From NCBI GenBank assembly GCA_950072105.1, contig CATMOE010000029.1, forward strand, positions 1 through 43,651: a stretch of DNA of 43,651 bases, in the 5' to 3' direction. Shown piece by piece: positions 10,935 through 43,651 of this stretch. The position numbers were made by a program, and so were the translations under genes. A model generated the notes under the pieces. The model had not been told where the DNA came from. It saw only the letters and a program-made list of their open reading frames with translations, and did no database searches. The stretch's first letter is position 1. Each line of letters opens with the position of its first letter. The DNA is from an uncultured Dehalococcoidia bacterium. Its GTDB lineage: Bacteria; Chloroflexota; Dehalococcoidia; Lucifugimonadales; UBA3495.

Positions 10935-12340
10935 ATGAAGTTGAAACGCAACTGGGCGTTGGGAATCATGTCCACCGTCTTAGTCTTTGTATTGGCCGGC
11001 TGCGGAGGGGATAGCACATCAACTCCCCCTCCTGCGTCCCAAGCAGATCCGGTTTTCCCCACGGTGGCCGCGCAACCGGCAACATTGGCTCCTACCGATG
11101 TTCCGGTGGCTAAGGAGGCGGCAACCGCCACGAGCGCGCCGACTGCCGTAAAAACCACTCCCGTTTCCTCTGATGCCCCATCCGAGCTTGGCAAGGGCGA
11201 ATCAAAGCAGGGATCTGAGGCTGAGGGAAGCAATGCGAACCGCCCACTCGTGGCGGCTGACCCGGGATATCGCGAGGAGTTGAGCTCTTCGGGCCTAAGG
11301 ACCGGTGGTTGGGAGACGGACTTCAGCTTCCACACGGTGCCCTTCGACTCCATACTGTCCGGGGGGCCGCCCCGGGACGGCATTCCCCCGATAGACAACC
11401 CTACATTCGTCGAGATCAAAGATGCTGACGAGTGGCTGGAAACCCTGGAACCGGTCGTGTCATTCGAGCTGAACGGCGACGCCAGGGCCTACCCTCTGCA
11501 GATACTGATGTGGCATGAGATCGTGAACGATACCGTAGGCGGCGCTCCGGTGTCGGTGACCTTCTGCCCCCTCTGCAACTCGGCCATCGTCTTCGACAGA
11601 AATATTAATGATCTGGTGCTCACGTTCGGGACATCGGGCATGCTACGGAAGAGCGACCTTATAATGTGGGACCGGCAGACCGAGACCTGGTGGCAGCAGC
11701 TAACCGGTGAGGGGATAATCGGGCAACTGGCCGGACACAAGCTGACCTTCATCCCGGCTCAGATCATCTCCTGGGAAGACTTCAAGGCAGCCAATCCAAA
11801 AGGCCAGGGCTATCCCGGGATACGGGTTTGGGCCGTCGCTACGGTCAAAATCCCTACGCCGGATACGACCGGGTAGATAATCCACCTTTCTTGTTCGACG
11901 GTGCCATCGACGGCCGTTTGCTTCCCAAAGAGCGAGTCGTAACGGTCACTATCAGTGACGTTGAGGCGGCATTCCCTTTCTCGGTGCTGGCCAAAGAGGG
12001 AACCATCAACTACAACCAACTACAACGTCGGCGGTACGGGTCTGCCGTCTTCTTCAAACCCGGCACCCGTTCTGCCCTGGACTCCGGTAATATCGCCGAT
12101 TCCAATAAGATCGGGGCGGCCGGGCTCTTTGAGGCCACCCTTGAAGGAACCAAATATATCTTCAAGAACGAAGGCGACAAAATTGTGGACAACGAGACCG
12201 GCAGTGTTTGGAGTATCCAAGGTGAGGCCGTCGAGGGACCCTTGGCCGGAAAGAAGCTGACACCGGTGGTCCACACCAACTCGTTCTGGTTCGCCGTCGC
12301 CGCTTTCAAACCCGACACCAAGATATACCAAGGCAAATAG
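10935..12340 (+). pseudogene. DUF3179-family lipoprotein, frameshifted near 11808
   Basis: Lipobox LAGC; SGGPPRDGIP, AYPLQILMWHEIVND, TFCPLCNS and WDRQTETWWQQ. The family-like continuation LSRDTGLGRRYGQNPYAGYD...FWFA is in a different frame (ORF 11828-12340). Confidence 0.8.
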
Positions 12341-25914: not shown

Positions 25915-26832
25915 TTAAAATCTGGCTGCCTCGCTGAGTCTTACTGCACCGCCATCGGGTATCAGTCCTGAAAACACTTCGGGGTGAATGATTTCCAGCC
26001 CAGTCACCAGCCTTGGCCCCAACCGGCTGGTGTAGGCATCGGCATCTATTATGAAAACCCGGTCGTTTCGTACCGCGGGGAGAGAATCCCACCCTTCTAG
26101 ATTCAACAGTAGCGGAATGTCTTCAATCGCCCGATCTAGGTTGAACCCACAAGGCATCAACATTATTATCTCGGGTTGACTCGCTATTACCTGATCCCAG
26201 TCCAGACGCGACGACCCCGTTTCCTTGCTGCCAAAACAACTTTCACCGCCAGCTCTTTCCACCATTTCCACCACCCAGTGACCACCGCACAACAGGGGAT
26301 CAACCCACTCGAGTTGGAGCACTTTAGGACGGTGCTCTCCCTGGGCCGCTCTCTCGGTAACAGCATCGATGCGAATCTGCAATCGGCCGGTTAATGATTC
26401 AGCGGCTTCGAGCCTATCAGTGGCCCGCCCGACACGCCGGATGTCCTCCAGAACATCGCCAAGCAACTCCGGGTCTAGCGAGATCACCTGAGGTTCCTTA
26501 TTAAGTGTCAAACCAAGTTCGGCTACCTGCCGAGCGGACAGGGCTCATACATCGCAAAGGGCTTGGGTCAACAGGATATCTGGGTTTGCGGCAAGCAACG
26601 CCGCTTCATCGGTTATGTATAGTCCCAGCCCTTGCCGGAGTTTTTCTGAAATAATCTCGCTGATCTCACCACTGGACGGGCTGGTGCCATCGAAAACGCT
26701 GCGAACGATGACCGGTTTGGTTCGGGCTTCGACCGGATAGTCGCACTGGGCGGTAACCCCGTAAAGCTGGTCTTGCAATCCCAACGCGTAGACTATCTCG
26801 GTTGCCCCAGGCTGAAAGCAACAGATCCGCAT
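25915..26832 (-). CDS. BtuF/TroA-like (cobalamin-binding fold) protein, 305 aa, with in-frame TGA at codon 96; candidate selenoprotein (CxxU)
   Basis: The two listed ORFs are in the same frame: ...[37 protein letters not shown]... Family motifs [39 protein letters not shown] and GPRL. Confidence 0.75.
26506..26544 (-). promoter_or_regulatory. Candidate bacterial SECIS element
   Basis: mRNA reads UGA-GCCCUGUCCGC (11 nt)-UCGGC-AGGUA-GCCGA (hairpin 26519-26533), with a possible lower pair UGUC/GACA. Confidence 0.6.
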
Positions 26833-26968
26833 GAATCACCTCTGCCCGTTCGAATCGGGCCACCCCGGCCAGAACCTTAATTTCTGCCGAATTTTTGTAT
26901 AAAACTCGATTCCGGACCAACCTGCAAATGCTTGCCAGAAACCGCTTCCGGCTGGGAATCAAGGATTC

Positions 26969-28081
26969 TTACTCGACCAATACTCTCACCCGTTGGGCCA
27001 TGTTGTTCCCCATTCCCTGGGCGTTCCAAAACTGCTCGATCGGTTGTACGTTTTCCTCAGTGTCGGTGGCCCGTACCGATAGAGTGTGCCATCCCGGGAC
27101 GGCATTCCAGTCAAACGACCACTCCCGCCAGGCAAACGTTGAAACCTGTTCACCCAGGGTGGCTACGGACCAAGTTGATCCATCGTCGACGCTGACTTCC
27201 ACACGGGAGACCCCCAATCGACCGGCCCAAGCCCTGCCGGTTAACGTTTGCTGTCCAGCAGTCATCCATCGCACTCTGGTCATCGTATCGGGAATCCCGG
27301 GCGGGATCATCAGCGCACGGACGCGGATCAACGTCACCGGTTCGCCGGGTTCTTCTGTATCCTGGGTGTAACGGTAGGACTTGGCCATCTGATAACCCTG
27401 GAACTGATCGCCAACCACCTCGATCTTGTCTAGCCATTTGACGCTGGCCATGCCGTACCAGCCGGGCAACAAGAGCCGAAGCGGGTAGCCGTGCTGGGGC
27501 TGGAGGGGCTGGCCGTTCATCTCGTAAACCAGCATCATCTCTTCCCGCATGGATTCTGCAATGTTCAAGCTACGTTGGTAAACCTGCAACACTTCCCCTT
27601 GAATCCCTTGATCCGCTCCGGAGAAAACTATGTTCACGGCTCCGTCCGTGAGACCGGCTTCATCCAAGATCCCCTTCAGAGGAGTACCGGTCCATTCGGC
27701 GGTGCCGATCCCTTCGTTGAACCATGGCTGACTGAAGACACGAGGATTCAGCAAAGCTCGGCCGTTACCGGCGCATTCCATCGTCACTGCCATCGTGCGT
27801 GCCGGCCGCTTCTTGATGTCGTCAAGGCTCAAGCTAAGGGGTTGGGAAACCAGACCTCCCACTTGTAGCTTCCATTGGTCGATGTCGATATCGGGGATAT
27901 CAAAGTGAATGACAAGATAATGCATCCCGGTTGGGGTGACAGGATAGCGCATGATCTCTAGCGGCATGCCTCGGTTGCGTAGGGCAAGTTGTACTTCTTC
28001 CCTGTGAAACAGGTCTGTGGCTTCCCGTTCGCTGGTATCTGGGAGTTTTAAAAACCGGGATGTAGGGTTGTCCAGGGTCAT
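26969..28081 (-). CDS. Sulfite oxidase family molybdopterin oxidoreductase (Moco plus dimerisation domain), no export signal
   Basis: TPTGMHY, Mo-ligand Cys in MECAGNGR, AEWTG, HGYPLRL..PGWYG..SVKWL, RVEVSVDDG and RATD. Confidence 0.92.
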   Translation of the reverse strand: MTLDNPTSRFLKLPDTSEREATDLFHREEVQLALRNRGMPLEIMRYPVTPTGMHYLVIHFDIPDIDIDQWKLQVGGLVSQPLSLSLDDIKKRPARTMAVTMECAGNGRALLNPRVFSQPWFNEGIGTAEWTGTPLKGILDEAGLTDGAVNIVFSGADQGIQGEVLQVYQRSLNIAESMREEMMLVYEMNGQPLQPQHGYPLRLLLPGWYGMASVKWLDKIEVVGDQFQGYQMAKSYRYTQDTEEPGEPVTLIRVRALMIPPGIPDTMTRVRWMTAGQQTLTGRAWAGRLGVSRVEVSVDDGSTWSVATLGEQVSTFAWREWSFDWNAVPGWHTLSVRATDTEENVQPIEQFWNAQGMGNNMAQRVRVLVE

Positions 28082-28494
28082 GTTCCACCTCGTAATCACT
28101 GATCGGGCTACGCCGTCAGTTTACTATCCTAACTGGGAATTCCGCGTTTTGGAAGAACCCGCGACTCGTGCGACAAGCCCATCTGGCCGGCTCTCGAAAG
28201 ACTGAAGGGATATTGTTTCGCGTCTGATTTATTGTTGATTGGGTGCTGCCATTAACGTATCATCGCTTTAGCCGGGCATTATCCCATAATCGGCCGGCGG
28301 CATCGCTGGACCTGATTCGCACGATAGAAAGAGGCGCGGAATGAGCGGCCCTTCACAACCTCACCGTACATCGAAACCAACCCCTACGACGAGCCGGTTG
28401 AAGCTATATCGTCTTGATGTGCAGACAATATCGTCGTGAATATTCAAGAGTGAGAAGCCCTAACGGGCGCAACGCCGCTTTTCAGCGAATAGTG

Positions 28495-42693: not shown

Positions 42694-43651
42694 CTATTGG
42701 GTGATAACCTGGGGGTTGTCTTGAAAATTGGGCATCACTTCATCAACAAAAAGTCGCAAAGAATTGAGCGACTGCTCATGGAACATAGTCCCCCAGGCAA
42801 AAACGCAAATCAAGTAATTGCAGCCGGATACTTCAAGCAAGCGAGCGATTTGCTCATTTACTCGAGAAGGAGAGCCATAGTTTAAAGTTTCGTTTTGAGT
42901 AGAAGAATCCCAATTGAAAAGTCCGTCCGGGAAATGGTCATCATACTCGTGCCATAACTTAGTGAGTGAATGGAACCAATCCTGGTGGGCTGCGCGGGCT
43001 ACCATCTCAGCTTGATTATCGGTTTCAGTCACCAAGATCCGCCGCATTACTCCTACCTTGGGCTCTGTTACATGCCCGTTCAGTCGATCCGGATCGGATT
43101 GATGCTCTTTCCACAGGTTCCAATACAGGTCAACGTTTTCTCTTATCCGTGCCGCCGGAGCGAGACTAACAAAGTGGTACCCGTTTCTTGCCACATTAAG
43201 GAATGCTGTTCGGATTATCAGTTGGATACCATAATGGTGGGTAAGGCTTCTGGTAGGGTTCCATCTCCATCGGAACGTTGTTGAAGTTGTAGTATTCTCC
43301 CTGAAAGTTCAGTCTTGACTGGGTCATCCCCTGAACGATAACCGCCACGCTCTCGTCGAAAATTGCTCGCGCATTATTATGATCGATTCCGGAGAATCCC
43401 AATTCGTACGGGGAAACGCCACGGGCCACACCCAAATCCAAACGGCCATCGGAGAGATTGTCCAACATACAAATTTCTTCTATCAGACGCAGCGGCGAGT
43501 AAAGCGGCAGTAGGTAGCCTAGCGGCCCTATCCTGATTTTCTGAGTCCGTTGGGCGGCGGCGGCAAGAAATAATGCTGGCGAAGGAGCCATGCCCAAAGG
43601 GGTGGCATGGTGCTCGGCCAGGTGGTAGCTGTAGAAACCCGCGACATCAGC
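42694..43651 (-). pseudogene. LLM class flavin-dependent oxidoreductase (LuxA-like), 5'-truncated by the window, frameshifted near 43195
   Basis: YHLAEHH, PSPALFLAAAAQRT, LDNLSDGRLDLG and PYQKPYPPLW. The junction CCT-TAA-T-GTG restores to P-Y-V-A-R if one A is removed. Confidence 0.8.

Follow-up and report, generated by a model that had tools for sequence, protein, structure and literature searches.

A BtuF-like gene predicted to encode a CxxU selenoprotein through an in-frame TGA in a marine Dehalococcoidia bacterium

When a single TGA interrupts an otherwise continuous gene, it is necessary to ask whether the gene is broken or whether the codon is read as selenocysteine (Sec), and in the second case what the product might do. 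The question is raised here by a 43,651-nucleotide stretch of DNA from an uncultured Dehalococcoidia bacterium (GCA_950072105.1, contig CATMOE010000029.1; hereafter the window), in which table-11 ORF calling divides a BtuF-like gene into 26545-26832 and 25915-26511. A sequence-only reading of the window had joined two ORFs in frame across the TGA at 26545-26547 and proposed Sec recoding. Our translation agrees with the join and places it on the minus strand, which that reading left unstated: the frame from 26832 to 25915 is 305 residues long and is interrupted once, by a TGA at codon 96 in the context TQALCDV-(TGA)-ALS, so that read-through would give the Sec of a C93-x-x-U96 motif. The product is a signal-less protein of the BtuF/TroA type (class III solute-binding-protein fold), as indicated by a match to PF01497 (E 2e-20) and by a structure model, computed with U read as C, that has a pLDDT of 94.6 and a best structural Z of 23.9. 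A Shine-Dalgarno-like GAGGTGA lies upstream of the ATG (26836-26842, minus strand), and GAGG- or GGAG-like words are found upstream in most relatives. A promoter scan of the gene gave chance-level results only, and contigs carrying the gene are present in one RNA run, which is not proof of transcription.

Recoding demands a dedicated machinery, and the host genome (4.08 Mb, 92% complete, 6% contamination) contains selA, selB, selD and tRNA-Sec, with selD itself carrying an in-frame TGA. More broadly, 120 genomes of the host's marine Dehalococcoidia family were sampled, and selA is present in 112 of them and in 70 of the 71 that are of high quality. The BtuF-like protein is similarly widespread, with a match in 118 of the 120 genomes, and the best match carries the TGA in 114. 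Exactly one TGA is found in 138 of the best 150 matches in the family, including all of the best 137 (183 weaker matches lie beyond these), and it occupies column 96 in all 29 family loci checked. In a class-wide sample of 301 genomes, strong TGA-bearing matches come only from the host's family.

The distribution of TGA and cysteine codons follows sequence identity. Genome loci gave 113 matches. The 18 with at least 60% identity, which include the window gene and a second copy in the host genome, all have TGA, and the other 95, all below 60%, have TGC or TGT; the TGA thus falls on a conserved Cys, as had been proposed, and close orthologs carry the TGA with the hairpin described below and not TGY. 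A similar picture emerges from a metagenome scan seeded with one full-length Cys protein, where 23 of 25 rows with at least 58% identity have TGA and two have Cys. The TGA is also present at the locus L069, which is 91% identical over residues 1-162. The host genome also contains a paralog with TGA and the same hairpin but lacking the deletion discussed below (G000:C3:32241-33152, plus strand), and two in the Cys form (C1:31919-32824 and C86:5075-5971, both minus strand). Protein databases give a complementary view: among the 120 protein matches listed, 97 are fragments of 83-98% identity whose alignments start at residue 98 or later, the pattern that a conserved TGA would cause, and 23 are full-length Cys proteins of 58-62% identity, from which it follows that Sec is not indispensable.

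The mRNA immediately downstream of the UGA reads, as described previously, 11 nt followed by UCGGC-AGGUA-GCCGA, which we place at 26533-26519 (minus strand) as a candidate bSECIS upper stem-loop. The bSECIS model, as set out in section 5 of PMC13188914, specifies a loop of 3-9 nt with a G at its first or second position, a stem of 4-16 bp, a spacing of 16-37 nt and an MFE of at most -7.5. The hairpin falls within these limits: the loop AGGUA has 5 nt with G second, the stem has 5 bp, the loop starts 16 nt after the UGA, and the 48-nt fold has -12.4 kcal/mol. The stability of the hairpin is ordinary by itself (z = -0.53; 57 of 200 shuffles fold equally well) and a loose TGA-plus-hairpin filter gives 214 matches in the host genome, on which grounds we rejected stability as a stand-alone proof of Sec. 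Among the matches listed, inspection by eye picked out further candidate sites whose peptides resemble those of selenoproteins (CxxU, UxxT and the like), at G000:C7:86820 (-), C8:11651 (+), C3:69061 (+), C45:8510 (-), C78:4382 (-), C81:11157 (-) and C87:5465 (+).

What exceeds chance, on the alignments, is the conservation of the hairpin across relatives and not its stability. The folding energy of the hairpin core is -11.4 in the 18 TGA rows versus -4.0 in the 95 Cys rows, the rows being kin and not independent. Of 301 windows of synonymous conservation, the top one comprises codons +4 to +9, which encode the hairpin (0.89 versus a median of 0.45). In 49 distinct downstream 36-mers, again from kin and not independent, and excluding the divergent locus L206, the hairpin codons are almost frozen (CGG in 48, CAG in 49, GCC in 48 and GAG in 46) and only the wobble base inside the loop is free to vary; crude genome usage of the same codons is 0.36, 0.60, 0.52 and 0.53, respectively. 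Covariation in the stem is not significant (122 of 500 shuffles score as high, with 11 rows), because the stem hardly varies.

Selection gives the same answer on both sides of the TGA, as the sequence-only reading had suggested comparing. Against 16 relatives, with one fragment dropped, dN/dS ranges from 0.065 to 0.195 in the 13 pairs for which it could be estimated upstream, and from 0.06 to 0.162 in the 7 such pairs downstream. Most pairs are near or at saturation; the two closest relatives give 0.13/0.15 and 0.13/0.12 (upstream/downstream). Sequencing reads offer a further view, since a TGY there would speak against the TGA: no other letter appears at 26545-26547 in four public runs (40 of 46 rows listed), and difference-free pieces cover codon 96 in three runs, with only 27 letters on one side. 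Taken together, the Sec genes, the conservation of TGA and hairpin in relatives and the low dN/dS agree with recoding, and the UGA at codon 96 is almost certainly decoded by SelB and tRNA-Sec by way of the hairpin 16 nt further on, so that the predicted product is a CxxU selenoprotein of 305 residues.

Two features had been put forward as possible marks of decay in this protein. The first, SRLGPR in place of the usual SRPGPR, is clade-wide, with RLGPR in 96 of 97 close fragment homologs, and we rejected it as a sign of decay. The second, a short GLEIIHP, reflects a real in-frame deletion of 12 nt (4 residues) at approximately 25990-25995 (minus strand), which takes out about one turn of the last helix, but it is specific to one species-level lineage and absent in the nearest other species. 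An assembly error can be rejected for this deletion: two marine metagenomes, belonging to different studies, have contigs that run across it gap-free, and it is found in all 12 site-reaching members among the 15 cluster members listed. The window copy might nonetheless be impaired by it. Other genes in the window are indeed broken, as had been noted, with frameshifts in a DUF3179 gene (10935-12340, plus strand, split near 11810, with the Cys form of its motif) and apparently in a luciferase-like monooxygenase gene (42694-43651, minus strand, near 43200); DUF3179 is itself a selenoprotein family listed in a review.

How often Sec has been gained and lost can be considered with quick trees, of which a second was built without the SECIS-encoded columns. 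They require four Cys/Sec changes, three of them forced by strong branches. The divergent metagenome contig L206 (38% identity) shares the TGA column but has another hairpin (with a GGAC-type loop, by eye) and is nested in a Cys clade, and it is likely to be a separate gain of Sec. Conversely, a Cys branch among the Sec rows (L138, L141 and the P0002-P0060 full-length matches, one protein of which is labelled Tectimicrobiota) retains the hairpin-encoded RQV-like peptide, and in the two loci of this branch with DNA the hairpin is lost at synonymous sites (-1.5 and -2.8 kcal/mol). The simplest reading, at a weak node, would be a Sec-to-Cys reversion with the RQV-like peptide as a possible fossil.

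What the protein does is a separate question, and its anatomy gives the first indications. The model resembles class III binding proteins to much the same degree whether their ligand is heme, iron or B12 (Z 22-24, about 20% identity), and we found no solved structure of a close relative. The Cys homologs form a large wider family in bacteria and archaea, with 3,453 clusters at E up to 1e-30, and 150 family representatives reveal a set of near-invariant residues: Cys30 (26743-26745; 146 of 150), aligned to S51 of E. coli BtuF beside cavity residue Y50; Cys93 (26554-26556; 148), in a 4-residue insertion after Q90, the W85 equivalent; Cys228 (26149-26151; 149), in the C-terminal lobe (all minus strand); and Q90 (148), C96 (148), W176 (150) and W186 (149), with H185 in 118. 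The CxxU motif comes directly after the BtuF W85 position. Cys30, Cys93, Cys/Sec96 and Cys228 probably lie on cleft-side loops and meet in space, as judged from the alignment.

The same comparison argues that the protein is not a canonical BtuF in any of four tested features, namely signal, docking glutamates, aromatic cavity and adjacent permease or ATPase. No more than nine residues precede the first strand in 140 of the 150 representatives, the window protein starting at strand 1, and none of the long N-terminal extensions inspected by eye has a hydrophobic leader. The docking glutamates of BtuF, E72 and E202 according to the available text of bioRxiv 10.1101/2022.12.02.518933, correspond to A77 and D213 here and are Glu in 50 and 54 of the 150 family members, though Glu is found in all seven canonical rows (E. 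coli BtuF and six signal-bearing BtuF neighbours). The six cavity aromatics given in the consulted part of PMC5269720 (Y50, W66, W85, F162, F168 and W196) become Q29, L71, Q90, E175, L181 and S207, in an alignment at 20% identity whose register near W66 is unsure; residue terms were not found in PMC4581229. Permease or ATPase genes adjoin neither the gene, among the window proteins scanned, nor any of 40 TGA loci. It is thus highly probable, on these predicted features, that the protein resides in the cytoplasm and has no part in an ABC importer, with a cleft that would be lined by thiol and polar groups in place of aromatics. The label "cobalamin-binding / ABC substrate-binding" is probably misleading. 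Single fusions to a DCC1-like thiol-disulfide oxidoreductase (P0218), a gamma-glutamyl cyclotransferase-like domain (P0184) and dephospho-CoA kinase (P0195) also occur in the family and may be gene-calling artefacts.

Genomic context links the Cys homologs to vitamin B12. Of the 148 non-TGA loci that have any neighbouring ORF, 28 show neighbours of B12 type (BtuB-, BtuF-, FecCD-, DUF71-, CobA- or DUF6580-like); where each flank reaches 2.5 kb or more, the figure is 20 of 63. Many of the 120 loci that lack such neighbours are short. The 28 loci come from at least five phyla, with seven from close Porticoccaceae kin and others from Planctomycetota, Bacteroidota, Armatimonadota and one Dehalococcoidia-class genome. 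For instance, one locus (L129) has in order a TonB receptor, DUF71, the BtuF-like Cys homolog, cobA, a permease, an ATPase and a separate signal-bearing BtuF, and Cys homologs in B12 loci often adjoin a separate true BtuF in this way. Cobalamin riboswitches are found in 11 of 19 loci hand-picked for B12 context. In 16 Chloroflexales-type loci, the Cys homolog is followed immediately downstream by a 666-residue protein that matches nothing in Pfam or NCBIfam (L079:3312-5312 in one of them).

The Sec clade presents a different context, with B12-type neighbours at 0 of 40 TGA loci (0 of 14 long ones) and no Rfam match in 15 TGA sources, the window included. The host genome has four cobalamin riboswitches, none at any of its four BtuF-like paralogs. 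The conserved neighbours of the Sec clade (a Lon N-domain protein, a Na/H exchanger, UvrC, a XerC-like integrase and an enoyl-CoA hydratase) suggest no pathway. In the window, a sulfite-oxidase-family molybdoenzyme gene (26969-28099, minus strand) lies 137 nt upstream on the same strand, an arrangement common only to the two nearest relatives. Elsewhere in the host genome, 29 tRNA genes are packed into 4.5 kb (G000:C23:17631-22111, minus strand), perhaps a mobile element or a contaminating contig.

Of the functions considered, we tentatively place first the handling of corrinoids in the cytoplasm through a thiolate/selenolate site, ahead of metal or cluster binding and then of thiol-redox catalysis. 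The aromatic cage of BtuF would have been remodelled into a site between the lobes, with C30, C93 and U96 from the N-lobe and C228, H185 and E175 from the C-lobe. With this site the protein would handle imported corrinoids within the cell, either chaperoning them or catalysing removal of the upper ligand or reduction of cobalt before adenosylation by CobA/BtuR. In this marine Dehalococcoidia lineage, rich in selenoproteins, Sec would exceed Cys in reactivity as a nucleophile or ligand. Such a CxxU protein may be redox- or metal-reactive, as the sequence-only reading had supposed. Against corrinoid handling stand the lack of B12 context in the Sec clade, the location of the riboswitches elsewhere and the lost aromatic cage, which argues against B12 binding of the BtuF type. 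A fuller version is speculative and rather doubtful: the binding-protein fold would have turned into an intracellular B12-salvage enzyme or chaperone. Both lobes would contribute Cys/Sec ligands, four in all, to a metal, Fe-S or cobalt-reactive site at which the corrinoid upper ligand is removed or swapped before adenosylation. The Sec form would be a corrinoid-processing selenoenzyme that arose at least twice and returned to Cys in the Tectimicrobiota-labelled branch.

The same residues could instead bind a metal ion or Fe-S cluster (Zn, Co, Fe or a toxic metal) with no corrinoid involved, in a cytoplasmic chaperone, store or sensor, and the B12 neighbourhoods would then reflect cobalt handling or one sub-branch. 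This is possible but less probable than corrinoid handling. Four near-invariant thiols, with His and Glu, on the predicted cleft-side loops would suit such a site, as would the lost cage and the absence of B12 context in the Sec clade, and metal-ligand roles for Sec in other transporter-related selenoproteins are proposed in the available part of PMC13188914. It leaves unaccounted the recurrence of Cys homologs under cobalamin riboswitches and between DUF71 and cobA, and recurrent metal-resistance neighbours were not found among the commonest annotated neighbour clusters.

Less likely again is a CxxU thiol/selenol oxidoreductase or transferase that acts through a C93-U96 selenosulfide on a small molecule held in the cleft. 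Its spacing is shared with many selenoenzymes, according to the portions of reviews consulted, Cys and Sec have been exchanged at least three times on the tree, and one representative is fused to the DCC1-like domain; however, the fold is not thioredoxin, the equally invariant C30 and C228 are left unexplained, and the fusion occurs in just one of the 11 long proteins scanned. A canonical BtuF of the periplasm or cell surface that hands cobalamin to BtuCD, with Sec incidental, agrees with the fold and the automatic names and is very improbable, given the features above, a score of 34.8 bits far under the 234-bit cut-off of the NCBIfam BtuF model, and the separate true BtuF in B12 operons. Equally remote is a pseudogene, a sequencing error or a TGA decoded as Trp or Cys under another code: TGY to TGA is one change, the window has frameshifted genes, this copy has a deletion and the hairpin statistics are unimpressive, but the uniform single TGA of the best 137 family matches, the purifying selection (dN/dS 0.06-0.2), the synonymous freeze and the prevalence of selA all oppose it, and conserved Trp columns are not TGA because each match has only one TGA.

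The gene is near-core in a marine Dehalococcoidia family and, since its close homologs are deposited as C-terminal fragments, systematically mis-annotated. Sec singles out position 96 as the reactive residue and gives biochemical work a direct starting point. Should the B12-salvage reading be true, a step between corrinoid import and adenosylation would be filled in.

Comparison with known systems places the finding. The sequence-only reading had spoken of BtuF-related selenoproteins as flagged at annotation level, and two reviews do list the family, in the parts consulted (one being PMC13188914) as table rows only and without function. All three of the refuting conditions that had been proposed (missing Sec genes, TGY without the hairpin in close orthologs, TGY in reads) came out in favour of recoding. 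The finding is therefore real but known as a predicted family, and the gene is with near certainty a genuine, if predicted, selenoprotein gene and another member of it. We infer identity with the reviews' listed example, from which the gene is not known to differ and whose accessions are not among the cluster members listed. The word "BtuF" was not found in the main text and five supplements of PMC5029168 (Peng 2016), the source that one review credits, nor were family terms found in the genome-listing part of the BSepDB supplement (PMC13326102); the available text of the latter counts two Dehalococcoidia, one of them UBA1141, among the ten most selenoprotein-rich bacteria. In keeping with the earlier statement that no function is established, a literature search, with most subscription papers outside it, returned no functional study of the family.

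In structure, the protein resembles E. coli and Vibrio BtuF and the class III heme and siderophore binding proteins (PDB IDs: 5ysc, 5m29, 2r79, 4m7o) in its two lobes and backbone helix (rmsd 2.5-3.2 A), and differs from E. coli BtuF in a 26-residue insertion before the W66 region and in the 4-residue insertion that holds C93. DUF71-B12 proteins are predicted to act in B12 salvage in the consulted part of PMC3541065, and Cys homologs adjoin DUF71 in 12 loci, whereas the Sec clade lies outside such clusters and the host genome (at its 92% completeness) has no DUF71 match. The hairpin is like the E. coli fdhF SECIS in lying within the coding region directly after the UGA with GCAGGU at its apex; this hexamer, pointed out before, is identical, although it starts at position 18 here and 19 in fdhF (counted from the U of UGA), one base nearer the UGA, and the stem is 5-7 bp of GC with a loop AGGUN, and no conserved bulged U was seen. 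The SaoB/SaoX selenoproteins, as described in the accessible part of PMC13188914, likewise carry Sec on an ABC substrate-binding scaffold, but with CUxxT and UxP motifs and an associated permease, SaoP, and their NCBIfam models do not match the window protein. The closest counterpart, on the portions of the reviews consulted, is the listed BtuF cd01144 CxxU selenoprotein family, with which the window protein shares the BtuF-like fold, the CxxU motif and one Sec.
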